From: Shigella phage SHSML-45
Direction: 5' to 3' (one strand)
Length of the DNA: 64,000 nucleotides
Sequence record: KX130863
The notes below the pieces were generated by a model, which did no database searches, was not told where the DNA came from, and saw only the letters and a list, made by a program, of their open reading frames with translations. The position numbers and the translations under genes are program-made. This document shows, in pieces, positions 17,654-62,308 of the stretch. Each line of letters begins with the position of its first letter. Position 1 is the first letter of the stretch.

Positions 17654-18867
17654 TCTTTATCTCCCTCGGTGGAACCTTGAGGTCTACCACCTTCTTGACC
17701 AGATACACCTGTTGCAGAACCAGCAACGTTAGCAGGAATACGAATCCTATCCATCTGCTCATCATCTAAAGGTTCAAGGTTCAGCTCTAAACGAGCTTCG
17801 TTACCAGTCATAATACCATTATTAACCAATGAGGTTAAATGTTTAGCCTCAGCTTCTTTATCTGGTGTTAATGCAGCTACCTCCTTAGTATTAGGGGTAA
17901 TCTTATAACCAAAAAAGAAAGTAAGAGAACTAGTCAGTTTGTTCAGCATAGGAATGATAGTCATATAATAGAACAATTCGATGTTTGGTCGAATATTCGC
18001 ATTATTACCACCATCAAGTAGTACTTGCGGAACTCCAAAGGCTAGACAAATAGATTTATTAAATCCTTCGATGTCTTCCTTAAAGTCTAGATCTTTAAAA
18101 GAGGATATTTGGGAGTACGGTTTAGCTTTCATACCACCATCTAGAATCAGGACAGAAGACTGACCCGTACTAGGATTATAATCGAGTTGTAATTCTTCTT
18201 GTTTACGCTCACGCAATTTCTTGTTCAGGATTTCATCCGTCTCAAGAATAAGACCAATCACGGTTCCGTTATCGAGGAATTTCTCTTTAAAGTTAAGCAT
18301 CTTAGAACGCTTCTCAAGAGAATCAATAACAGTAGCAACACGAGATTGTCCAGAAATTTGAGAGTTTGTGCCACACACGTAACTGTTATCCTTTATAAAG
18401 ATAATCTCATCTACGCGATAGTCTATCTGATTATTAAATGTAAATTTTTTGATAAACTTATTGGCATCTGCCTCGACCTGCATAAGAGCAGCCGGGACAT
18501 GGTAAAGCGATGTGCCATCCCAATAGATGTATGCACAACCTTCAAAAAGTAGGTCAGTGACTACAAGTCTACGGAATGTGCTTATATCCATGAATGGATT
18601 AGGTCGTACATTTAAGAGAGTGTCTAGAGTCTTTGTTTTGACGCCATTAGCGTACGTAACAATATTATATTTATCTCCGACAGTATAAGAACACTCCGCC
18701 GCACTATCTATAACCATATTAGCAGTTCTATTGAGAATCTCAATTTTACTGTAGGCTTGTCCAGTGGTAAAAGGCTTACGGTTAGTGCGATGACTAACTG
18801 GTTCCATGTCTCTTATAATACGTTGACCCGGATTTAACTTTTCAGTAATCCAGCTTTTTAAACCCAT
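17650..18867 (-). CDS. portal protein (405 aa)
   Basis: Position between terminase and head genes; size close to the T5 portal. Confidence 0.7.
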   Translation of the reverse strand: MGLKSWITEKLNPGQRIIRDMEPVSHRTNRKPFTTGQAYSKIEILNRTANMVIDSAAECSYTVGDKYNIVTYANGVKTKTLDTLLNVRPNPFMDISTFRRLVVTDLLFEGCAYIYWDGTSLYHVPAALMQVEADANKFIKKFTFNNQIDYRVDEIIFIKDNSYVCGTNSQISGQSRVATVIDSLEKRSKMLNFKEKFLDNGTVIGLILETDEILNKKLRERKQEELQLDYNPSTGQSSVLILDGGMKAKPYSQISSFKDLDFKEDIEGFNKSICLAFGVPQVLLDGGNNANIRPNIELFYYMTIIPMLNKLTSSLTFFFGYKITPNTKEVAALTPDKEAEAKHLTSLVNNGIMTGNEARLELNLEPLDDEQMDRIRIPANVAGSATGVSGQEGGRPQGSTEGDKE

Positions 18868-19319
18868 TATAAGAACCTTGCGAATCCTGATTTTATTTCA
18901 GTCTTGACTTGTGTCTTTTCTTGAGGATTCTGTAATTTGTCTTTCTGCTTTTGAACCCACACTTTTTGCTTATTAGCAGAAAATAAAGGAGGTTCTTTCG
19001 TGTAAACCTTATGTAATAGTTGGTGATGGTGCTGGCACAATGTTACCACGTCCCTAACTAACTCATGCTCATATTTCTTGTAGAATGCTTCCCTATTTGA
19101 AAGGACGATATTCTCATCAGTGAAATCCAGCTGGAGTTCTTTAGCAAATTTTTTTATTAGCTGAGATATAGTATGATAGTGATGAAGTTCTAGGTCTTCA
19201 CTACTACCACATATAGCACAGCAACCATCCTTACTATACCTAGATTTTATACCATCCCTCATTATGGAAATGGCATCACGTTTGTACTTAGTATTAGTGG
19301 CCATACTCCTCCAATCCAA
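18867..19319 (-). CDS. HNH endonuclease (150 aa)
   Basis: Cys/His motif CAICGSSEDLELHHYH ... CQHHHQLLH typical of the HNH fold; sits between terminase and portal genes. Confidence 0.7.
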   Translation of the reverse strand: MDWRSMATNTKYKRDAISIMRDGIKSRYSKDGCCAICGSSEDLELHHYHTISQLIKKFAKELQLDFTDENIVLSNREAFYKKYEHELVRDVVTLCQHHHQLLHKVYTKEPPLFSANKQKVWVQKQKDKLQNPQEKTQVKTEIKSGFARFL

Positions 19320-19968
19320 AGCTATTTAGAAAGATTACTATATCCTCAGGAGCAACATTAAAAAATTCCGTGCTTCCTGTAAAATTAGAAAACCCACAGT
19401 TTTTATTATAATATTCTCTGTGAACTTCCTTTTCTAAATCTAAAGCAGTCTCTCTATCTGGCAGATGATACATGGTGAACAAGTACAGGTCAGAAAATCC
19501 AGATTCTCTTTTAACTTCATTCAACCGTTTCTCGGGATATAAGCTTATGCCTACTTTAGTACCGCTAGAGAAGGACATGATATAGAGGAATCCACCATTC
19601 TCCCACTTAAGAGAACAATAAGGACATCTCTTACCTTGAGTCAATCCATCTAAGGTAATGAAACAGTCATGCCCATTATTGCAGCGTAGATGTAGTTTTG
19701 TTTTAGCATTAGTATAGCTGCTTAACAGAGTATACCCTATATTAGATATTCTGTTACTAACTTCATCTAACGATATTGTATTATTGGAGCAGTGTGGACA
19801 ACCTCTCCTCATATGGAGTATAGAATGTGGTGTTGCTTCCCAAACGTGTGCTCTCTGGCATTTAAATACTGTTTTTGTACGTTGGTTTACATATTCACCG
19901 ACAATTTGGATTCCACGATCAGCTAATCTAATATTTATATCTTTTATTGTTAGCTTTTGTCGACCCAT
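19294..19968 (-). CDS. putative homing-endonuclease-like protein, T5orf172/GIY-YIG-related, with zinc ribbons (224 aa)
   Basis: Two CPxC zinc-ribbon motifs (CPHCSNN, CPYCSLK), GFLYIM...KVGIS core, C-terminal GSTEFFNV shared with a paralog at 50118-50816. Confidence 0.5.
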   Translation of the reverse strand: MGRQKLTIKDINIRLADRGIQIVGEYVNQRTKTVFKCQRAHVWEATPHSILHMRRGCPHCSNNTISLDEVSNRISNIGYTLLSSYTNAKTKLHLRCNNGHDCFITLDGLTQGKRCPYCSLKWENGGFLYIMSFSSGTKVGISLYPEKRLNEVKRESGFSDLYLFTMYHLPDRETALDLEKEVHREYYNKNCGFSNFTGSTEFFNVAPEDIVIFLNSFGLEEYGH

Positions 19969-20139: not shown

Positions 20140-21456
20140 TTATTTACCACGGGAAATAGAGTAAATTCCATAGCGGAGCGCATCACAAAGGTGAGAGTTA
20201 GCATCATGACGTGGTTTTTCACGTGATAATTTCTCTTCACCCTCTTGGAAATCCCACTTATAGTTCTGCAATGCATGGATTAATGAGGAACATGAAGCAT
20301 CTACAATAATCTTGCCCTGCTGGAATAGTGCTTGCAAGCATGCTAGACCATCTAGGACAGATTTTTTAGCTGGAGCTGATGCAATTTCATGCTCATAAGC
20401 TAAGTCCTGTCGGAACTGGGCTGCTGCAGAGTCAACAAAAATACGATCAACTTTATAACGATCTATACAGTGCTGAATATAAGCAGCATGCTGAGCTGTA
20501 GTTTTCTCCGCCTGCTGGTACTCTTCTAGTACATAGTAAGTATCCGTGTCGTAATGATATTTAATAGTAAGAACTGCTGTAGGATCACGATAACCAACGT
20601 CAATACCAAGCAACGTTTCAAATGCTTCATCATCTTTAAAGAAGTGACGCATACCTTTGAGATCTTTAACATGATCTATAGCATTAAAGGTATCAAATAT
20701 CTGTCCTTCGAATACAGAGAAGTCAGCCTCGTATTCTTGGCGGAAGTAGTTTTTACTAACTGTACGACGTGCTTCCTCAATGTCATTCAGATCAGCACGT
20801 GGGTTATCACGATATGTACCATGAATAGATACCCAGTTAGGTAGTGTCTCGTTAAATCCTTTCTCATAAAACTCTTTGAACCAGTTACCACCACGAGGGG
20901 TAGAAATGAAAAGAGCCTTAGAGTTTGGTTTATCTAGGGTTGGACGAAGCTGAATATCGAATGCAGCACCACCAACGTCAGAGATTGCGGCTTCATCAAA
21001 GATGATGAAATCATAGGAACGACCAACTGCGGAGTCAGCCTGAGCAGCAGAAGCTAATTTGAACAGAGAACCGTTGGCCAGCTCAATTTCTTTATCTTTG
21101 GCATTCTCACGCTCAGTCTGCAATCCATATTTTTTAATTAGACCACGAATCTGTGACCAACCGATGTTTGCTAGTGAGTAGTTAGGTGCAACTACCAGCA
21201 CTTTTACATTAGGTTCTAGCAGTTTTAGGAACCCAAGTGTATATGCGATAAATGACTTACCTACACGACGTGATACACAAGCAGTTACGAAACGATGTCT
21301 AGGGTCTTCTAGGGCATTAATAATTGCTATTTGAGGACCATTAGGTGTAATACCTTCTTGTGCTAGTATTCCCGAAACAGGTAGACGAAAGAAACGCTTA
21401 TCTATTCCGAAATCAATAACATCTACTGTGTTAACATAGGGTCTTGACACTTCCAT
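20140..21456 (-). CDS. terminase large subunit (438 aa)
   Basis: Walker A-like VSRRVGKSF and Walker B-like FIIFDEAA motifs; nuclease-like C-terminal half; 438 aa as T5 TerL. Confidence 0.85.
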   Translation of the reverse strand: MEVSRPYVNTVDVIDFGIDKRFFRLPVSGILAQEGITPNGPQIAIINALEDPRHRFVTACVSRRVGKSFIAYTLGFLKLLEPNVKVLVVAPNYSLANIGWSQIRGLIKKYGLQTERENAKDKEIELANGSLFKLASAAQADSAVGRSYDFIIFDEAAISDVGGAAFDIQLRPTLDKPNSKALFISTPRGGNWFKEFYEKGFNETLPNWVSIHGTYRDNPRADLNDIEEARRTVSKNYFRQEYEADFSVFEGQIFDTFNAIDHVKDLKGMRHFFKDDEAFETLLGIDVGYRDPTAVLTIKYHYDTDTYYVLEEYQQAEKTTAQHAAYIQHCIDRYKVDRIFVDSAAAQFRQDLAYEHEIASAPAKKSVLDGLACLQALFQQGKIIVDASCSSLIHALQNYKWDFQEGEEKLSREKPRHDANSHLCDALRYGIYSISRGK

Positions 21457-21938
21457 TACTTCTTACCTCCAGTAGCTAGGGAAGTAATTAAGTCCATGTA
21501 GTTTTGATCCCCAGCTCCAGCAATAATATTATTCTGGATGTTAGTCTGATTAGCAGGAGCTCGAACGGCAGCTTTAGCTTTTTCTAACTCCACCATCATT
21601 TTCATTTCTTCCATCTTCATTTTGTGAGCTTTCCAGAGAATATCCATAATATCCTGGTCAGATCCCATACCCGTTTCTTCAAGTTCTTCCAGCTTACGCT
21701 TGATAACCTCATCAAGAACTCCAAACAACTTGTCACGGTTGCGGAACCCACTTTCCATAAAGATATCATTGAGGTAGTTCTTAACTTCCCCACGATTCAT
21801 AATATCCCTGAATGCAATTTCCGACATACCAAGACTACGGGCAGCCATGCGTACATCGCTACCGCACTGTAAATAAGCCTCGATTACATCCATGCCTTCA
21901 GGGGACATAAGATCTGGTACTAATACATCATTTGCCAT
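21456..21938 (-). CDS. terminase small subunit-like protein (160 aa)
   Basis: Small ORF directly upstream of and start-stop coupled to the large terminase gene; N-terminal HTH-like segment. Confidence 0.55.
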
Positions 21939-21948
21939 ATTTCCTCCT

Positions 21949-23706
21949 TTAGGTAAGGCGTTGAACTGTTACTCTTAGTCTAGGCAGGAAAACTGCACTA
22001 CCTAAACTCACGTGCATAACTACCCCTAGCTCTACATTTCCATTTCCCAGGTTTTTAACGGTGTATATAAAACTATTCCTGCTTAGAGCATTATTAGGGG
22101 TGTATCTAAAAGCTGCTGTAGTATGAAAAGGTACTAGGTAGCCCACAGGTAGCGTTAGAATCTGGTGGAATATTGCATCTCCATTACCATAACTATGCGC
22201 TTTTCTTCCTTGTACTTGAAACACCCTATCATTCCATGTATTAGCAGGAACACCTGCACAGTTAAGGTTACCGGATATAACTTCAGTAGTAAGAATAACT
22301 GTAGCATTACCGCCAGGGATACCTAACCCAATAGTTGATAAACCAACATACCTGTCGCCAGTTCCGGGATAGTAAGGAGTAATATCATCTCCCATATAAG
22401 AACTACCCACATTTCCACCAAAAAGTCGTAGTGGAACTGCTGAGGGTCCCCAAACAACTCCATGCTCATTACCAATAGTATTATCGTTAGAGTTTACATA
22501 CCACTGTTTACCTACTCCGAACTTATAAATGCTAATCTGTGATTTAGCTCCTCCATAATCTACAGGAGACCACAATCCTCCATTACTAGACCCTACAAGT
22601 TCACATCTTGCCGTGGTATCACCAAAAACTCCAGTATACGCTGCGTTATTTCCGATGAATTCCATATCTGGCCTATAGCCTAAGTTACCAAAAGCATTCT
22701 GGTTAATAAACTTATACCCGGTATTAGGGAGACTCACCCCTTTAATTATGAAATTAGAAGGAGATATAAGAATATCAGAACCAGTAAAGGGGTTGCCGGA
22801 AATACTCATACCACCATTCGAGTACCTTAAATTAAGAACATACCAAATAACCTTAGTAGGAGTTATATTATACCAATCCTGTATTACTGTAGGGTTGCCA
22901 GACTGATTGGCCAGATTAGTAGTAGACCCTCTACAAACAAATCTGTTCCCGCCGTCGTGGTACATAGTATTTACATTGCCTGGGAGCCCTTGTCTAACCC
23001 CACCATATCCACGTATATTAGAATTGCAGACATAAAACCAATCATGCCCTCTATGCGCTGCTCCTAGAGGCGACATCCATCCAGGATCCCAATAGTACGG
23101 GTTATTCCCATCTACAGGTACTGTGCTACTGTTAGTAGGAAACCCTAATTGTGCAAAAGCTTCTGCAACAGTAACACCTACAGGAGCTCCCGCACCAGGC
23201 CTAACTATACCATGGTAGGTACTATGTAACGTAGTACCACCTGTGCCACTCCTAGAGATAGATTCTTCGTGCCCTATCGAGGGGTTATAATTATAAGTTC
23301 CAGATGCGAGGCTGTTACCAAATGCAAATCCACTGGTTTGAGAAACACTAGCAAAAGATCTAAAGGGACCTGCTTGAGTAGCAACTATAGTTTGACCAAC
23401 TTTACTCTGAGTACCATTAAGAAAAGCCCTATGAGTACCATTAATCTCAATAGCAGTTAGTATAACTCTACCTGGGTCGTTGGATTTAATATTTATTATG
23501 TCAGAGGGCATCTGACAGACAAAAAACCCATTCCCGGCATCCCCTAATCCTGCCTCATAAGTACCATCAACTAGAACAAATGGCATATCACTATGAAAAA
23601 TACTATTATTATTTGGACTATAGTGACGATTAATGTCACCCCCAGATTCAGTATTTAAAGATAGTACGGTCTTACCATCGCTATATTTTCCAGCGAAAAA
23701 ACCCAT
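21949..23706 (-). CDS. receptor-binding protein pb5-like (585 aa)
   Basis: Gly/Asn/Thr-rich beta-type protein encoded divergently from a lipoprotein gene, the arrangement of T5 oad/llp; 585 aa (T5 pb5 is longer, suggesting a different receptor class). Confidence 0.65.
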
Positions 23707-23731
23707 ATAATCTCCTATTATAAAAATGTAT

Positions 23732-23760
23732 TTGCTTTCATCCCTCTATTTTGCTATAAT
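23732..23760 (+). promoter_or_regulatory. sigma70-type promoter for the Llp-like gene
   Basis: TTGCTT (23732-23737), 17-nt spacer, TATAAT (23755-23760), AT-rich upstream; GGAGAG RBS before ATG at 23792. Confidence 0.65.
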
Positions 23761-23791
23761 AAATTCATAAATTAGAAATGGAGAGATAAAT

Positions 23792-24058
23792 ATGAAAAAG
23801 TTTGTAATTGCACTAGTTGCCGCAGTTATGTTATCTGGTTGTGCACCTGCTCCCAAACCATTTTGTACTGGATTTGTAAAATCTTTTGGAGGTGCCGGAG
23901 AAGAACATTACGGCCTCAAGGTTCAAAAAGTTCGTATTAAGGGAGATCGCTTTCCAGTAGTACAGCTCCGTACTAAGTTTGGGTGGTGGGATCTCAGTCA
24001 GTTTGACCTTAAATACGGTGATTGTAAATTTAAACTAGAGCAATCTAATTACTTGTAA
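23792..24058 (+). CDS. llp: lipoprotein Llp-like (lytic conversion / receptor-blocking), 88 aa
   Basis: Signal peptide plus lipobox (VMLSGC) at the N-terminus; encoded divergently beside the receptor-binding protein gene. Confidence 0.65.
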   Translation: MKKFVIALVAAVMLSGCAPAPKPFCTGFVKSFGGAGEEHYGLKVQKVRIKGDRFPVVQLRTKFGWWDLSQFDLKYGDCKFKLEQSNYL

Positions 24059-24235
24059 TTAGTATAAAGCAAAAAGACATCCAAGTAAACTAAATTTTTT
24101 ATTTCTTGGACGGTATACTGGCAGAAAACACTACATAAGAAAAGTAGAAGTCCTTCTAGGAGTTCACAGGCACGGTTGGTTATGCCCAAATTATAAAATA
24201 TTTTAAAATACCACATTTATAGGAGCATGAAAGAT

Positions 24236-24364
24236 ATGTCAAACAAAAGAAAGAGCAGACGTGGAGAAGTGTACGATAGCTGGATTAATAGCTTTGGATT
24301 CGGAACTATCCTATTCTTTATTTTCGTAGGTTTTTGGTTAGCAGCTATGGCGGGGTGGATTTAA
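24236..24364 (+). CDS. small membrane protein (42 aa)
   Basis: AGGAG RBS before ATG; basic N-terminus then hydrophobic helix (GTILFFIFVGFWLAAMAGWI); below the ORF-track size cutoff. Confidence 0.45.
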   Translation: MSNKRKSRRGEVYDSWINSFGFGTILFFIFVGFWLAAMAGWI

Positions 24365-24471
24365 TGGAATGGGTAATTATTGCATTACTAGGGATTGTGA
24401 TTATCGGGCAATGTATTTTAGATATTCACTTAGCTAGAATTGAAACTTTATTACTGGAGAAGCGTAAATGA
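24364..24471 (+). CDS. small membrane protein (35 aa)
   Basis: ATG overlaps the preceding stop (TAATG); hydrophobic N-terminus MEWVIIALLGIVIIG. Confidence 0.4.
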   Translation: MEWVIIALLGIVIIGQCILDIHLARIETLLLEKRK

Positions 24472-24662
24472 TGGAAGTAGTAGCTACATTAATAGTATTA
24501 GTAGTTTGGGCAGCTTTCATTATTTCTTACACCGCGTATGTTCGCCTAAAAACTCTAGAAGCTCAGGTAAAACAGCAACAATTTGCTATAGAAAAAGTAG
24601 TAGAACTGCAACGTTGTGATAGTACCCGTATTCTGCAAATTGAGAGGGAATTAGATGTTTAG
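24468..24662 (+). CDS. small membrane protein (64 aa)
   Basis: ATGA start/stop overlap with the upstream ORF; one predicted TM helix then charged tail. Confidence 0.5.
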   Translation: MMEVVATLIVLVVWAAFIISYTAYVRLKTLEAQVKQQQFAIEKVVELQRCDSTRILQIERELDV

Positions 24663-24900
24663 TATTATAATTGCTTTTATTATCGGGGTAATCGCGGGAG
24701 TTTTCGGAATGACTGCGGCTATTAACAAGCATCGTAAGTATACTGCGGAAGTATCGCGGGAGATTGCGGAAAGGGAGCGGAAGTTTGAAGAGAAACGTGC
24801 GGAGTTTGAGCGGGAGTGGAATGATGGTTCTCGGGCGTCGCGGAAGAGATTTCGTGAGTTTAGACCTGAACATAGGTTTGATGACCCTTCTATGCGCTAA
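24655..24900 (+). CDS. small membrane protein with Arg/Glu-rich tail (81 aa)
   Basis: Overlaps the upstream ORF; N-terminal TM helix (IIIAFIIGVIAGVFGMTAAI), highly charged C-terminus. Confidence 0.5.
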   Translation: MFSIIIAFIIGVIAGVFGMTAAINKHRKYTAEVSREIAERERKFEEKRAEFEREWNDGSRASRKRFREFRPEHRFDDPSMR

Positions 24901-24942
24901 TTGGGAAATCTCGAAATTTCATAAGATTACACATGGGGGTTC

Positions 24943-25482
24943 ATGGTGAAGAATAATCTAAATATACAGGAAATACAAGAAGTATTTGCTTATGATCCCG
25001 AAACTGGAGTTTTTACCTGGAAAAGAGGCAATCGTAAGGGTAAAGAAGCAGGTACTTTAAATAGGGGATATAGGCAGCTTAAGTATCGAGGGTTTAAAGC
25101 TTATGCACATCAAGTAGCTTTTGTTATTATGGAGAATAGATGGCCAGCGGAATGTGTAGACCACATAGATAGGAATAAACTAAATAATAGATGGTCAAAT
25201 TTAAGAGAGGCTTCAATTACAGAGAATAATCATAATGGCAGAATCTCAAGAGCATCATCAGGCTATCTAAATGTTACATGGCATAAAGAACTTCAGAAGT
25301 GGATGGTAAGATTACATGATAAACAGGGGCTGATAAGGGGTACTACTAAGTACTTTCCCTATAGCGGATTAGAAGATGCCGTAAATTATGCAAATTTACT
25401 AAGAAGGACATTTCATGGTGACTTTGCAATACAGGAGATGTTCAAAGGAAGTATACCAGACGTTGCCCAATTAAACAGTTAA
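24943..25482 (+). CDS. HNH homing endonuclease (179 aa)
   Basis: Motif AHQVAFVIMENRWPAECVDHIDRNKLNNRWSNLREAS typical of phage HNH homing endonucleases; paralogs throughout the window. Confidence 0.75.
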   Translation: MVKNNLNIQEIQEVFAYDPETGVFTWKRGNRKGKEAGTLNRGYRQLKYRGFKAYAHQVAFVIMENRWPAECVDHIDRNKLNNRWSNLREASITENNHNGRISRASSGYLNVTWHKELQKWMVRLHDKQGLIRGTTKYFPYSGLEDAVNYANLLRRTFHGDFAIQEMFKGSIPDVAQLNS

Positions 25483-25657: not shown

Positions 25658-26392
25658 TTACGCGACTTTTAGTTTCTCAATATATTGTTGCGGGCTGCAA
25701 CTATATTCTGCGCGTTCTTCCTCGGTCATACTTTCCCAACATAATTGCAGGCGGTCGGCTAGGAATTGATAATCATTATCATCGTCGAGCGATTCATCAA
25801 TAAAGGTTTCACCTATCAATGTAACCCCAATCGATAGAATATCGTTAATAGCTTGCGCGTCCAGCGTTTTAAATCCGTATGACGCCGCCGCTGATAGCAC
25901 GCCTTTATGATCATCAATCATCGTAAAATCAGCGTTTGGATATAGCTGTTTAAATAATTCAAAATAATAAGATTTATATACCGCGTCCTTACTGTGGTAT
26001 ATCTCGCTAACTTTATCAGCCTCAAAATATTTGTGTAGTGTATCACGGGAAAACACGCGGATATTACTATCACCACGACCGCGCAACCCTTGTTTACGCA
26101 AATAATAATAGTCCGACTTGCTCATTAGTCGAGCGGTGCAAATAATGTTTAAAGTATTTGCGTCATTCATGCACTGGCGCATATATGTAACAAGGGGCAA
26201 TAGTGTATCTTGCATTATTAAATCATGTTTGCAGGCTTCATTTTTATACTTATTTAAATCTAAATTGCCCTCGCTATCAAAGCAAGGCGCTACACGATGA
26301 AACGAATTAACGATAGTGCCGTCCAGATCCCAGATCATGACGCGGGAAATATGCGGGAAATTACGGGTAATATTCGTTTTAACTTGATTCAT
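25658..26392 (-). CDS. dmp: 5-prime-deoxyribonucleotidase Dmp-like (HAD superfamily), 244 aa
   Basis: N-terminal HAD motif IWDLDGT; 244 aa as T5 Dmp; adjacent to the A1-like gene. Confidence 0.6.
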   Translation of the reverse strand: MNQVKTNITRNFPHISRVMIWDLDGTIVNSFHRVAPCFDSEGNLDLNKYKNEACKHDLIMQDTLLPLVTYMRQCMNDANTLNIICTARLMSKSDYYYLRKQGLRGRGDSNIRVFSRDTLHKYFEADKVSEIYHSKDAVYKSYYFELFKQLYPNADFTMIDDHKGVLSAAASYGFKTLDAQAINDILSIGVTLIGETFIDESLDDDNDYQFLADRLQLCWESMTEEERAEYSCSPQQYIEKLKVA

Positions 26393-26472: not shown

Positions 26473-26865
26473 TTAAAGGCCATACGCAAGCGCGTCAGCG
26501 ATAAAACTAACATCCTCACCTGATACATAGGAACGAATACCCGCACAAGTATATACTTTTGCACTCATCAATTGATCATCTAGGCAAGCGGGGCAAGGCG
26601 CAACCACTGCGAAAGCTAAACCGGATTTTACCGCGTCGATGATAGTCGTTTCTTGTTTCATCGTGTCAACATAAACGCCTGCGGCCTTAATGTAACTACT
26701 TGCGCGGCCTTGCGTATAGGCGAAAGTAGTGATCTGTAAAGCGTCGTTAAATTCGATTAAATCATCGACAACATGCCCCGCCTCGACGTGATAACGTTCG
26801 CCATTAGAATAAACCAGAACAATAGAAGATTGAGCGCGGTCAAATGGAATATTTTGCTTTTTCAT
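26473..26865 (-). CDS. hypothetical pre-early protein (130 aa)
   Basis: ORF with RBS, GC-richer codon usage like neighbours; no recognisable motif. Confidence 0.45.
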   Translation of the reverse strand: MKKQNIPFDRAQSSIVLVYSNGERYHVEAGHVVDDLIEFNDALQITTFAYTQGRASSYIKAAGVYVDTMKQETTIIDAVKSGLAFAVVAPCPACLDDQLMSAKVYTCAGIRSYVSGEDVSFIADALAYGL

Positions 26866-26886
26866 ATTTATATAACTCCAATTAGT

Positions 26887-27396
26887 TTAATAAGGGATAT
26901 TAAATTCTTTACACTTTGATTTAACCCATTCTAAAAGAATAGATAAATCATAATTGCCTTTTGAAACATATTTATTTGTTATAGGGTTTTTAATTTTTGC
27001 CCTGTAATATTCTCCCGCTATGGGATCAACTTTATCAAGATAAATATATTTCGGTAGTTTATTACGCCTTTTATAATCACTCTTATTTGTCATATTAACA
27101 GCATGAGTAACTAGGCGTAAATTATTTATATCGTTGTTAACGGGGTAAGAAATTATTTTATGATCTATATCTAAATCAGGGTTAATTTCTTTATTAAATA
27201 AAACCCAAATTAAACGATGAGCTTTATATAATTCACCATTAATCATTACATCATAATAGCCTGTCTGATTTAATGTTCCCGCTACACTTCCAGCTTTCAC
27301 ACCGGGCTTACTTATTTTCCATCGTAAAAATGATGGGCTAGATTCATCATAATAAACATTCTCGTTAACTTCATTAAAATCTATTTCTTTTGCCAT
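26887..27396 (-). CDS. HNH homing endonuclease (169 aa)
   Basis: Motif YKAHRLIWVLFNKEINPDLDIDHKI...NLRLVTHAVN shared with other HNH paralogs. Confidence 0.7.
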   Translation of the reverse strand: MAKEIDFNEVNENVYYDESSPSFLRWKISKPGVKAGSVAGTLNQTGYYDVMINGELYKAHRLIWVLFNKEINPDLDIDHKIISYPVNNDINNLRLVTHAVNMTNKSDYKRRNKLPKYIYLDKVDPIAGEYYRAKIKNPITNKYVSKGNYDLSILLEWVKSKCKEFNIPY

Positions 27397-27466
27397 TTAT
27401 AATCCTCCAATTAATATTGTCTCACTAATTGGAGGATTTAGGCAAATAAGATTTTAATTTATTGGC

Positions 27467-29134
27467 TTACTGTACAAAAAATTTACCGTTTTTAAAGTCA
27501 ATCAAAGTGCGCTGACCGTTTGCATAGGTAATAATATGCGTTTGCGTCCAGCTTGACGCGCCAACGTTGTAGCCCATATCAAGCGACCCCGCCACGCCAG
27601 CGGTATAAACGCCGCCGTAAATGCTAGCCGTATGAGTATGACCAGTGTTAAGGCGTCCCAACTTTTTAAACTGCTTAGGATTGCCCCGACTGCCGTTAAT
27701 GCCATTGTGACCGTGTACGCCGCATTCAATGCCAGCGATTTTAAATGATTGGTCTGTCGTCAGGAAAATAGCGTTAAATTCGCAACCTGCGACACTACGC
27801 AAGGCGTAATCTAGAACGTTAAAGGTATCATCCTTTTCAGCAATAGCGGCGTAAATCGCGGCATTTAGACGGTGATACAATTCCGCGTTTGCGGGATCGT
27901 CTTTAATGTTTGCGTTACGATCATCTAGCCAGCGTGAAAGAGCTAAATCGTGATTCGATTCAACAATAATTGTCTGCGAAAAATCGCGTTCCATTGACTC
28001 CAGCACGCGTCCAGTATCGATAAGATCATCCAGAACTTTATCACGTCCGGCGGCGTACTGTTTAGCAAGGAATACACCACTTGCGCGGTTATGATGATTG
28101 CGCGATGTAAAATCATGCACATCATGAATAAACTGATATTTCGGTTTAAGAATATCAAGCAAGCTGTTTTCACTAGCCCATGACGCAGCGGCGCAATCAT
28201 CATCTAATTTTTCGGCGTGAATATCGCCATATTGCAAGCCTAGAACATGATCGGATGTTTCAAAACATCCGGTAGGCATAGCGCAAACATTCAAATCGTA
28301 GAACATGCCGCTTTCGTCCATTGTTTCAAGCTGGCGGCAATAAAATTCTCCGTCGTCGTCAAATTCTACTAGCAAAGCGCCGAAATTATGTAAAGCCTCG
28401 GCCTTTTGCCCTGCTTTCTGCTGAATGTAGTTTTTAAGCGTAGCCGTTCCGGTTGAGTACATACGGCGCACTACTTCACCTTTTAACGCTGGCACACTTT
28501 CAGCGGTGATTTTAGCATGACCGATTGCCAGACCTTCAATATTTAAAGCCGTGGCGGTTTCTGCGAATCCTGAAAGCGGATAATCTGCCGTTGGTAAAAC
28601 GTTAATTTCAGCCATGAAAGCAAAGCGGCGATTATTCAGGAAAACATTTTTATCGCAAATATATTTATCGAAAGCTGAATCATATTTGATTCCTTCGCTA
28701 CCTTCGCCGTTTTGGAATCCATTTTTATTATAAATGAATTTACTAACCAGCAATTCAGCACCGATATATTCAGCGAATTTTTCCAGACTTGCTAAAAAGT
28801 TTTTATGCGGGAAAGTATTATTTTGAATCGACGTTAGAATAAAACGGCGACCGGATTTAACTTCCCATTGTTCGACGGTACTAGAAACAATCCCCGCCGC
28901 TTCGGGGCGATCATCATTTTTAATCGCCTTTTCAGCTTTTGCCGCTTTCGGTTTCGCTGGCTTATTTGCTTCCAACCAGTCACAAATTGCGGTCGAATGT
29001 TTCGGCGTATCATAAACAGCTTTTGAAATATCGTCGCAAACTTCCAATTTAGTAGCGCGTAAACGCTTACCGTAGAAGTTAAAATCTGCGGCCATTTTCA
29101 AAATTTGAGCTTGTTTTTCTGCGGAAATAACCAT
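27467..29134 (-). CDS. A1: A1-like pre-early protein, metallophosphoesterase-type (555 aa)
   Basis: 555 aa (T5 A1 is about this size); C-terminal His-rich metal-binding motifs (GHNGINGSRGNP...GHTHTASIYGG); sits between dmp-like and A2-sized genes. Confidence 0.6.
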   Translation of the reverse strand: MVISAEKQAQILKMAADFNFYGKRLRATKLEVCDDISKAVYDTPKHSTAICDWLEANKPAKPKAAKAEKAIKNDDRPEAAGIVSSTVEQWEVKSGRRFILTSIQNNTFPHKNFLASLEKFAEYIGAELLVSKFIYNKNGFQNGEGSEGIKYDSAFDKYICDKNVFLNNRRFAFMAEINVLPTADYPLSGFAETATALNIEGLAIGHAKITAESVPALKGEVVRRMYSTGTATLKNYIQQKAGQKAEALHNFGALLVEFDDDGEFYCRQLETMDESGMFYDLNVCAMPTGCFETSDHVLGLQYGDIHAEKLDDDCAAASWASENSLLDILKPKYQFIHDVHDFTSRNHHNRASGVFLAKQYAAGRDKVLDDLIDTGRVLESMERDFSQTIIVESNHDLALSRWLDDRNANIKDDPANAELYHRLNAAIYAAIAEKDDTFNVLDYALRSVAGCEFNAIFLTTDQSFKIAGIECGVHGHNGINGSRGNPKQFKKLGRLNTGHTHTASIYGGVYTAGVAGSLDMGYNVGASSWTQTHIITYANGQRTLIDFKNGKFFVQ

Positions 29135-61622: not shown

Positions 61623-62123
61623 TTTAAGTATTTTTAAGAACTCTCGTAAAAACTCTTAAAAATACAGACGATACCGGGAGAGTCATAAGTCTCACTCATT
61701 AAGTATTTCAAGACAAAATACAGTAACGTCTATTATTTTCCAGTTTAAGTCAAGGTGACTTAGTGGTTATGTCCTGCGGTATACTGAGGACTCGGTTAGG
61801 TTAGGGTCATGACTCCCCACCTTTTGCTGCTACTCAACAGGAGTTATCGCGAATTACCTGTGCTATTGTGCACCATTAGTGACATCTCTCATGTCAGCAT
61901 TTCCCACTTTGTGGATAGCTTGAAAAACTACTCCGATATGGAGAAAGAACTTCACTATCCTAGAATACCTTCTAAAGTTCTTCTTTAGCCTGGACATAGT
62001 TAAATCGTAATAAAACTATTCAGCAGACTGGTTGGTTAGTCTGGAACCAACTACCGCGTGGTTTAGGCAGTGCGCAACTAACCTCGGAAGCTTTTACGTT
62101 AAAAGCACCAGTTATCCAGTTCT

Positions 62124-62195
62124 TACCGACCGTAGGATTCGAACCTACATCTTCCACCAGTTACGGCTTGATAATACCGTTTATACTAGATCGGC
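62124..62195 (-). tRNA. tRNA-like sequence, anticodon undetermined, no encoded CCA
   Basis: Canonical T-arm GTAGG-TTCGAAT-CCTAC and pairable acceptor GCCGATC/GGTCGGT, but no convincing anticodon stem by manual folding. Confidence 0.4.
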
Positions 62196-62308
62196 AGTGT
62201 TACTACATAAGTGATTTCCACACCCCACTATTTATAAATTAGAGAAGAATTACTCTCTAATTTATGAATATATTATACAGAATTTATAAGCATTTAGCAA
62301 ATGAATTT

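Follow-up and report, generated by a model that had tools for sequence, protein, structure and literature searches.

Shigella phage SHSML-45 carries a BF23/AKFV33-type host-recognition module whose receptor is very probably BtuB

In T5 the receptor-binding protein (RBP) pb5 (Oad; 8a8c, 8b14) is borne on the end of the straight fibre pb4, as known from the T5 literature, and recognises FhuA, not BtuB. The solved complexes of FhuA with pb5 and with Llp provide the mechanistic template for this module; the same study places the disulphide of the T5 lipoprotein Llp at Cys11-Cys58 and reports the T5 receptor loops at low confidence in AlphaFold (PMC9586334). BF23 carries a related Hrs/Llp module (Mondigler et al. 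2006; OR083247) and has BtuB as its receptor; its Hrs can take over the function of pb5 in T5, and receptor blocking has been shown for its Llp (PMC10644984). BtuB is also the receptor of phiR2-01 (PMC8624392) and of DT57C and DT571/2, for which resistant mutants carried a btuB deletion or IS insertion; the cloned llp of DT57C lowered plating of BF23, DT57C and DT571/2 more than 100-fold and left T5 unaffected (PMC4728585). FepA is a known alternative receptor among T5-like phages and is used by H8. A recent dataset includes 23 BtuB-binding Demerecviridae with RBPs about 30% identical to pb5, and FhuA use there is limited to T5 and CEV2 (bioRxiv 10.64898/2026.04.02.716166). The receptor can be predicted from the RBP cluster (PMC8594841). 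Shigella phage SHSML-45 is among the phages used in commercial Shigella cocktails; a literature search on this phage returned cocktail-efficacy papers and BLAST tables and no receptor study.

The window analysed here is a stretch of 64,000 nucleotides from SHSML-45 (sequence record KX130863). Its RBP gene, a pb5/Oad/Hrs homologue of the BF23/AKFV33 type, which is very probably the BtuB type, lies on the minus strand at 21949-23706 and encodes 585 aa from an ATG start with no internal stops; an AGGAG five nucleotides before the ATG (23712-23716, minus strand) reads as its ribosome-binding site. Residues 1-585 align to positions 1-650 of the 650-position profile PHROG 4815, 'receptor binding tail protein', at E = 6.2e-273, a full-length similarity that places the product in the family of T5-like receptor-binding tail-tip proteins and, at 6e-273, is far beyond chance. 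A PDB sequence search recovered the solved T5 pb5 chains 8b14_B and 8a8c_B (E = 3e-51), and the N-terminus and C-terminus (...QRLT) are conserved with all T5-like RBPs. The sequence is exactly that of YP_009280207.1 from Shigella phage SHSML-45, deposited as receptor-binding protein, and its 90% cluster has 231 members. The product is the usual tail-tip receptor-binding protein of T5-like phages, previously catalogued, of the same family and at the same genome position as T5 pb5 and presumably with the same role at the pb4 tip. The pb4 straight central fibre gene is found at 756-2828 on the minus strand (PHROG 3890, 'straight fibre tail protein', E = 0).

Pairwise comparison placed this RBP with those of BtuB phages (56-98% identity) and far from those of T5 and H8 (about 29-38%). 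Identity was 96-98% to Bas31, Bas32 and T5_ev219, 73% to DT571/2, 67% to BF23 Hrs and 56% to phiR2-01, and, depending on counting, about 30-38% to T5 pb5 and about 29-33% to the H8 RBP. The initial annotation had called the product shorter than pb5, and it is, at 585 versus 640 aa. The shorter length reflects separate deletions; one of them removes the greater part of the loop L4 region of T5 (T5 570-590), leaving a 9-residue stub. The middle third of the two proteins stayed unaligned in the HMMER search, and only 10-30% of positions are identical over SHSML-45 residues about 106-285, the region that T5 uses at FhuA. High identity to pb5 over the receptor-contacting loops L1-L4, as expected of the FhuA type, was thus not found, and high identity to the H8 RBP, as expected of the FepA type, was not found either. 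Loops L1, L2 and L4 of T5 were mapped onto the SHSML-45 protein through a low-identity alignment, and their positions are tentative; the receptor assignment does not hinge on a structural model. A Gly/Asn-rich composition had also been remarked on; this is true (Gly 14.0%, Asn 9.1%) but does not discriminate, since T5 pb5 is of similar composition (Gly 12.8%, Asn 8.8%).

The nearest relatives are the AKFV33-type pb5 proteins (AKFV33, Bas31 DaisyDussoix, Bas32 IrisVonRoten, T5_ev219, Cit2 and about 100 other records), all of 585 aa. They are 95-98% identical to the SHSML-45 protein without gaps, differ from it at 11-30 positions, with five substitutions that are private to SHSML-45, and have the same Llp and context. 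The BF23 module shares gene order, BtuB class and an RBP that is homologous end to end. BF23 Hrs is 595 aa long, however, and identity to it falls to 30-57% over residues about 91-270 and 50-57% over 466-510; since these two stretches are so divergent, Hrs and the SHSML-45 RBP are regarded as different subtypes with the same Llp. Hrs of DT57C/DT571/2, for which BtuB was shown genetically, represents a third BtuB subtype, with an RBP of 586 aa and an Llp that differs by one residue. Between BF23 and SHSML-45 a recombination point appears to lie between the RBP and llp genes, and Golomidova et al. noted one between the genes for DT57C (PMC4728585).

The divergent llp gene (23792-24058, plus strand) encodes a predicted receptor-blocking, or superinfection-exclusion, lipoprotein of 88 aa in PHROG 1119 that also matches Pfam LPAM_1 (23.9 bits, cutoff 20). 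Its N-terminus reads MKKFVIALVAAVM-LSGC, with a predicted signal peptide at residues 1-16, the lipobox L-S-G-C and a predicted lipidated Cys17 (codon at 23840-23842). In the Lol sorting pathway an Asp at +2 is the retention signal; the residue following Cys17 is Ala, and Llp carries no such signal. A lipoprotein signal peptide, a lipobox Cys and the sorting signal expected of an outer-membrane lipoprotein are all present. Llp is identical to BF23 Llp at 88 of 88 positions, the two genes differing by 8 synonymous and 0 non-synonymous changes, and its exact sequence occurs on 281 contigs. The RBP is accordingly paired with a BF23-type Llp, as in the BtuB subgroup, and not with a T5-type one. Identity to T5 Llp is 24-28%, so the suggestion that Llp specificity would differ from that of T5 agrees with the alignments. 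Pairwise BLASTP against T5 Llp gave E = 1e-4, mostly from the signal peptide, and a PDB sequence search with the SHSML-45 Llp returned chance-level matches only (such as ovomucoid, E = 0.2), with the T5 Llp chain not among them. Both proteins match PHROG 1119 (E = 1.8e-26 for SHSML-45, 1.1e-19 for T5), they have a common lipobox, and Cys25 and Cys78 align with Cys26 and Cys73 of T5 Llp (mature residues 11 and 58); the kinship of the two lipoproteins is visible only at the profile level.

The RBP and llp genes are separated by an 85-nt divergent control region (23707-23791), which has the same length in BF23, with divergent promoters annotated there. It is 95-100% identical in nucleotide sequence to those of BF23, DT571/2, Bas32, EV219 and AKFV33 and unalignable with that of T5; for BF23, llp and the intergenic region are 95-97% identical. 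A putative llp promoter was located at 23732-23761 on the plus strand, with TTGCTT (23732-23737), a 17-nt spacer and TATAATA (23755-23761). This is an exact copy of the T5 consensus TTGCTT-N17-18-TATAATA as given with the AKFV33 sequence, whose record annotates a promoter at the equivalent spot, suggesting that the element may function as a promoter in SHSML-45. A scan of 21300-25000 for generic sigma-70 promoters and terminators gave no excess over shuffled sequence and left the intergenic region empty; it missed the putative llp promoter because TTGCTT shares just 3 of 6 bases with TTGACA. The ribosome-binding site of llp reads GGAGAG (23780-23785, plus strand), and a published BF23 llp cloning primer that spans it matches the window exactly at 23780-23820.

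T5 and BF23 have the same order, terL - terS - RBP <-> llp - four small membrane ORFs, and the placement of the RBP gene immediately upstream of terS, with a small lipoprotein gene diverging from it, is also shared with DT571/2 and phiR2-01. The T5-like gene order recorded in the initial annotation was therefore borne out, with llp 85 nt away from the RBP gene. In a sliding comparison with T5, nucleotide identity runs at 80-98% over terL/terS, drops to about 46-60% from 21949 to 24226 and returns to 89-96% from 24227. On the left, the terminase small subunit gene (21456-21938, minus strand; PHROG 3802, E = 1.7e-89) is 86-93% identical to those of T5, BF23 and H8; on the right, four small membrane-protein ORFs, homologues of T5.159-T5.162 (24227-24900, plus strand; PHROGs 8596, 6369, 5851 and 6447), are 91-94% identical to those of T5, DT571/2 and BF23. 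Judged by this identity profile, the RBP-llp block of about 2.3 kb, comprising the RBP gene, control region, llp and spacer (21949-24226), is a swapped host-recognition cassette relative to T5.

Receptor data are available for the closest relatives from RB-TnSeq screens (bioRxiv 10.64898/2026.04.02.716166 supplements). For Bas31, btuB was the only listed hit (fitness about 15), and it was strong for Bas32 (about 14-15). T5_ev219, the closest relative, gave a noisy screen in which btuB (9.9, in one of two replicates) stood beside LPS-core genes and yrfF; all three phages were assigned BtuB. Since the SHSML-45 RBP groups, at 56-98% identity, with those of phages verified to use BtuB, its receptor is very probably BtuB, and its Llp the matching BtuB-blocking lipoprotein, an assignment that runs through near-identical relatives.

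Binding to FhuA in the manner of T5 pb5 was concluded in 2026 for the related phage Cit2, whose RBP was given as 96.9% identical to that of 'T5' (PMC12980165), and the Cit2 RBP is 96.2% identical to that of SHSML-45. When the identities were recomputed the 96.9% figure was not reproduced, and the claim was rejected: in a direct comparison the Cit2 RBP shows 36% identity to the genuine pb5 of T5 (NC_005859) and 97.3% to the T5_ev219 protein, and the 'T5' reference in that paper thus appears to have been mislabelled. The low identity to pb5, overall and in the FhuA-contacting region, the loss of loop L4 and the BF23-type Llp all argue against FhuA, as do the screens of Bas31, Bas32 and EV219, which pointed to btuB and not fhuA, and the confinement of FhuA use to T5 and CEV2 in the dataset cited above; FhuA as the receptor of SHSML-45 is highly improbable. 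FepA would be less probable still. The H8 RBP belongs to the same family, occupies the same locus upstream of terS and is 83% identical to the SHSML-45 protein over the N-terminal 30 residues, but that segment is conserved across all types, the H8 protein is 637 aa long with different insertions, overall identity is as low as noted above and the DNA of the cassette cannot be aligned with that of H8 (44-67%). The idea that the receptor differs from that of T5 thus stands, and the protein alignment proposed as its check did not turn up the high identity to pb5 that would have spoken against it. The accompanying argument from size class holds in part: a length of 585-595 aa marks BtuB users, but not users of FepA, the 637-aa H8 protein being in the size class of T5 pb5. 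Taken together, these comparisons indicate that the receptor is almost certainly BtuB, and not FhuA or FepA.

With BtuB as the receptor, a finer difference in specificity was also considered. Five RBP residues, G113, D493, R494, G507 and A531, were unseen in 17 sampled relatives, and six or seven changes cluster within 493-508, a stretch inside residues 466-510, which vary across BtuB subtypes as well. In the tentative alignment with T5, G113 falls beside Gln115 at the tip of loop L1, and A531 beside or with the L4 stub. The changes D113G, N493D, G494R, S507G and S531A, together with the rare K502 and H504, might in principle retune loop contacts, and the altered specificity could match the BtuB variants of Shigella hosts, or preserve infection of btuB point mutants resistant to the other subclade phages. 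This seems improbable. The substitutions are few in number and in part conservative (K/R, S/A, S/G), the T5 loop alignment is unreliable at 10-27% identity, and dN/dS is 0.03-0.05 over the gene within the subclade and at most 0.25 in codons 485-515, with no sign of positive selection. The RBP in its subclade is under strong purifying selection, and with dN/dS at most 0.25 positive selection on the 493-508 cluster was rejected as evidence of adaptation. In its wider form, the proposal would be that the private and rare substitutions sit in BtuB-contacting loops and give SHSML-45 a fine specificity unlike that of other AKFV33-type phages, and more broadly that the BF23, DT57C and AKFV33 subtypes dock differently on BtuB and share one Llp; this has a marginally better, though still slim, chance of being correct. 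If it were, SHSML-45 might, for example, still infect btuB loop mutants or better fit Shigella BtuB.

The current view of T5-like host recognition is unchanged by these results, and their practical value is modest. Since the receptor is almost certainly BtuB, loss of btuB is the expected route to resistance against SHSML-45, and where independent receptors are wanted this phage should not be paired with other BtuB-dependent phages. To judge from the sequences compared here, the receptor of a T5-like phage is reliably callable from the pair of RBP and Llp. The published FhuA inference for an AKFV33-type RBP (PMC12980165) is flagged on account of its apparently mislabelled reference sequence.

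The locus is very probably the module with which a T5-like phage (Tequintavirus) recognises its host, in the BF23/AKFV33 version. A single copy of the RBP would be seated on the tip of the straight fibre pb4; lateral fibres would deal with the O-antigen, after which the RBP would bind irreversibly to BtuB, the TonB-dependent vitamin B12 transporter. The binding signal may then pass up the fibre, the tail tube would open, the tape-measure protein would leave and the DNA would be ejected. In the opposite direction, the T5-type promoter would drive llp, and the 88-aa prolipoprotein, lipidated at Cys17, would reach the periplasmic leaflet of the outer membrane and bind BtuB. If it acts as T5 Llp does on FhuA, it may jam the BtuB plug from the periplasmic face and cause the extracellular loops to fold inward, so that further BtuB-dependent phages could not adsorb and progeny would be spared waste on cell debris. 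The PDB search found no BtuB-RBP or BtuB-Llp structure, and the binding geometry is therefore borrowed from FhuA; loop insertion and periplasmic jamming at BtuB are presumed by that analogy, and SHSML-45 itself is expected to behave as its relatives do. The lateral fibre genes, which set the O-antigen range, fall outside the present finding.

Sequence comparisons support the vitamin B12 transporter BtuB as the receptor of the 585-aa receptor-binding protein (RBP) of SHSML-45. The RBP gene is an ATG-initiated ORF of 585 codons on the minus strand (21949-23706), with a ribosome-binding site, AGGAG, read from the sequence 5 bases upstream of the start. Downstream, 10 nt past the RBP stop, lies the terminase small subunit gene terS (21456-21938, minus strand; PHROG 3802), followed by the large subunit gene terL (20140-21456, minus strand). 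On the opposite strand, 85 nt upstream of the RBP gene, is llp, an 88-codon ORF (23792-24058, plus strand), and beyond it are four ORFs for small membrane proteins, homologues of T5.159-T5.162. T5 and BF23 share this arrangement, as the initial annotation had proposed in describing an RBP gene divergent from the lipoprotein gene as in T5. That the product is shorter than T5 pb5 was also borne out: it lacks 55 residues, through discrete deletions, one of which removes most of T5 residues 570-590 in the alignment, corresponding to loop L4, one of four pb5 loops inserted into FhuA (PMC9586334). The reported Gly/Asn richness was likewise found (Gly 14.0%, Asn 9.1%), but since T5 pb5 has similar values (12.8% and 8.8%) it is a family trait rather than a marker of receptor class.

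The exact 585-aa sequence is on record as ANN87086.1 / YP_009280207.1, 'receptor-binding protein [Shigella phage SHSML-45]', and its 90% cluster has 231 members; the group is well studied, and this member of it was already catalogued. A profile search matched it end to end to PHROG 4815 'receptor binding tail protein' (E = 6e-273). In a PDB sequence search its sole solved relatives were the T5 pb5 chains 8b14_B and 8a8c_B (E = 3e-51), aligned in two blocks (residues 1-109 and 273-531) with the middle third unaligned. The best nucleotide match in the BLAST collection used, from which the SHSML-45 record is seemingly missing, was 94.6% for the RBP gene and ∼92% for the first 25 kb of the window. 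Translated searches (tblastn) of 50,697 phage records gave a stepped distribution of identities. The AKFV33 type, the RBP subtype that includes T5_ev219, Bas31 and Bas32, accounted for 86 records at 95-99% and 17 at 90-95%, and 293 records fell at 60-80% (DT571/2 at 73%, many Salmonella phages at 66-72%). Below 60%, phiR2-01 (55%) was followed by a large fall to ∼30%, where T5 and its FhuA-type relatives, Klebsiella phages and the FepA phage H8 were found. Identities to T5 and H8 vary with the denominator chosen, being 30.0% and 28.8% by tblastn, 33% and 30% by global alignment divided by the longer sequence, and 37.8% and 32.9% over aligned columns only. Global alignment over the longer sequence gave 67% to BF23 Hrs, 73% to DT571/2, 56% to phiR2-01, 96% to Bas31 and 97% to Bas32; T5_ev219 was 98.1% identical. 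Divergence from BF23 Hrs was greatest at residues ∼91-270 (30-57% identity) and 466-510 (50-57%).

RBPs of T5-like phages form three clusters that predict BtuB, FepA or FhuA as receptor (PMC8594841). Members of the SHSML-45 cluster with direct receptor evidence are BF23, the classical BtuB phage (PMC10644984), DT57C and DT571/2, which select btuB deletion or IS-insertion mutants (PMC4728585), the BtuB-dependent phiR2-01 (PMC8624392), Bas31, Bas32 and T5_ev219. The last three were assigned to BtuB by RB-TnSeq (bioRxiv 10.64898/2026.04.02.716166 supplements): btuB was the sole gene listed for Bas31 (fitness ∼15), scored ∼14-15 for Bas32, and scored 9.9 (t = 80) in one of two replicates for T5_ev219, a noisier screen than the others, in which read counts were low and LPS-core genes and yrfF also scored. 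The same study describes 23 BtuB-binding Demerecviridae with RBPs 'approximately 30%' identical to pb5, and FhuA use limited to T5 and CEV2 (bioRxiv 10.64898/2026.04.02.716166). Within the AKFV33 subclade the RBP gene is under strong purifying selection (dN/dS 0.03-0.05 at dS 0.23-0.74), and conserved function at 96-98% identity is therefore naturally expected. A literature search found no receptor study of SHSML-45 itself, which is the siphovirus component of the ShigActive and ShigaShield cocktails. The comparison with pb5 and its relatives proposed in the initial annotation (T5 ∼30-38%, BF23 67%, DT571/2 73%; Llp 24-28% to T5 Llp) thus supports its suggestion that receptor and Llp specificity differ from those of T5, and narrows it to BtuB.

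FhuA has been inferred for one phage of this subtype, Citrobacter phage Cit2 (OP745948), in a 2026 paper that reported its RBP as 96.9% identical to 'T5' and its Llp as grouping with those of BtuB phages (PMC12980165). When recomputed from the Cit2 gene (L010:1294-3051, compared with window 21949-23706), identity was 36% to T5 pb5 of NC_005859, 97.3% to T5_ev219 and 96.2% to the SHSML-45 RBP, and the Cit2 Llp is that of BF23. The further identities given in the paper (BF23 66.7%, DT57C 73.2%, H8 27.7%) also fit an AKFV33-type RBP. Because both sets of values fit this type, the 'T5' sequence in question was probably T5_ev or another T5-like record. With only 36% identity to genuine T5 pb5, the FhuA call looks like the result of a mislabelled reference, and the simplest explanation for the RBP/Llp 'decoupling' discussed in the paper is an artefact of the reference used.

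The N-terminus of the 88-aa Llp, MKKFVIALVAAVMLSGC, is a lipoprotein signal peptide with a lipobox, and Pfam LPAM_1 scored above cutoff. All 88 residues are identical to Llp of BF23, AKFV33, Bas31 and Cit2, with 99% identity to DT571/2, Bas32 and T5_ev219 and 51% to phiR2-01. The gene differs from BF23 llp by eight synonymous and zero non-synonymous changes, the exact protein sequence occurs on 281 contigs, and the published BF23 llp cloning primers (PMC4728585) have exact matches in the window, at 23780-23820 and 24221-24241. BF23 Llp is cited in PMC10644984 and PMC4728585 as blocking BtuB, and DT57C Llp, which differs at one residue, cut plating more than 100-fold for BF23, DT57C and DT571/2 but left T5 unaffected (PMC4728585).

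The T5 and BF23 Llps have been termed non-homologous (PMC10644984, PMC4728585). PHROG 1119 (Cor/Llp family) nevertheless takes in both (BF23-type E = 1.8e-26, T5 E = 1.1e-19), and in the alignment the non-lipobox residues Cys25 and Cys78 fall on Cys11 and Cys58 (mature numbering), the disulphide pair of T5 Llp. The two proteins probably share a fold and are remotely homologous. Pairwise BLASTP gave E = 1e-4, mainly from the signal peptide, and a PDB sequence search with the SHSML-45 Llp made no connection to T5 Llp. The T5 llp segment compared with window 23792-24058 was L001:1188-1421.

A putative llp promoter could be read from the sequence on the plus strand as TTGCTT (23732-23737), a 17-nt spacer and TATAATA (23755-23761), with GGAGAG at 23780-23785 preceding the llp ATG at 23792. 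The AKFV33 record has an annotated promoter at the corresponding position and gives the T5 promoter consensus, which these elements match exactly. A generic promoter scan did not report the putative llp promoter, because TTGCTT agrees with TTGACA at only three positions.

Nucleotide identity to T5 is 80-98% across terL and terS and 89-96% from 24227 onward. Over the interval from 21949 to ∼24226 it falls to ∼46-60%, which is in effect unalignable. This collapse between conserved flanks indicates that the RBP-llp block (∼2.3 kb) is a replaced module. Such a replacement was reportedly first described for BF23. Window 21949-24058 was compared with BF23 (L004), DT571/2 (L003) and Bas32 (L007) for dS and nucleotide identity. 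Nucleotide identity to BF23, DT571/2, Bas32, T5_ev219 and AKFV33 is 95-100% for llp and the intergenic region; for the RBP gene it is 87-94% inside the AKFV33 subtype but falls to 68-71% against BF23 and DT571/2. RBP dS within the subtype (0.23-0.74) compares with 0.09-0.18 for llp even against BF23. Judged by these divergences, the two genes have different histories within the BtuB group, and the hrs-llp recombination point described by Golomidova et al. (PMC4728585) recurs with the AKFV33 type, a third RBP subtype. One nearly invariant Llp is common to three RBP subtypes (BF23, DT57C, AKFV33), implying that recombination has occurred repeatedly between the RBP gene and llp.

Five RBP residues, G113, D493, R494, G507 and A531, were absent from 17 sampled relatives, which have D, N, G or S, S and S, respectively; K502 and H504 are rare. 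In low-confidence alignments with T5, G113 adjoins the position of the L1 tip residue Gln115 and A531 falls in the L4 remnant. Such substitutions could adjust binding, but with dN/dS no higher than 0.25 in codons 485-515 there is no sign of adaptation.

A model of infection can draw on the family membership, cassette boundaries and identities to characterised proteins established in this analysis, on the published BtuB dependence of near-identical RBPs and blocking by Llp, and otherwise on analogy with T5 structures. The RBP would sit at the tip of the pb4 fibre (pb4 gene 756-2828), and receptor binding would pass a signal to the tail tip and open the tube, with the tape-measure protein giving rise to the DNA channel. 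Llp, an early product, would carry its lipid on Cys17 and, since Ala at +2 is no inner-membrane retention signal, be sorted to the outer membrane; on the periplasmic face of the receptor it would jam the plug, leaving the RBP site covered by extracellular loops. PDB sequence searches with RBP and Llp found no BtuB complex structure, and the binding geometry on BtuB is therefore putative, by analogy with T5.

Several other features were observed in the window. An HNH endonuclease ORF (24943-25482, plus strand; 179 aa; PHROG 99, E = 1.5e-50) lies between the last small membrane ORF and a dmp-like gene (25658-26392), at the position where the terminal repeat starts in T5 and BF23. Identity to all references falls from 24901, and T5, BF23 and DT571/2 have no gene here; the ORF is probably a homing-endonuclease insertion. 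A second HNH ORF (26887-27396, minus strand; 169 aa; PHROG 99, E = 8e-37) lies in a low-GC stretch (26750-27500, ∼29% GC). It is flanked by a conserved 130-aa ORF on one side and by the A1 DNA-transfer gene (27467-29134) on the other, and in BF23 no gene separates the equivalents of these two. Between the portal gene and terL, two overlapping endonuclease-like ORFs (18867-19968, minus strand) encode 224 aa (PHROG 681 'endonuclease') and 150 aa (PHROG 3497; weak HNH match, CxxC...HH motif), whereas BF23 has a single 'nicking endonuclease' gene in this place. ARAGORN called ten tRNA genes at 55.8-62.2 kb, among them a candidate tRNA-Ser with the unusual anticodon ACT (62123-62196, minus strand), which may be a real gene, a miscall or an odd tRNA known in T5-like phages.
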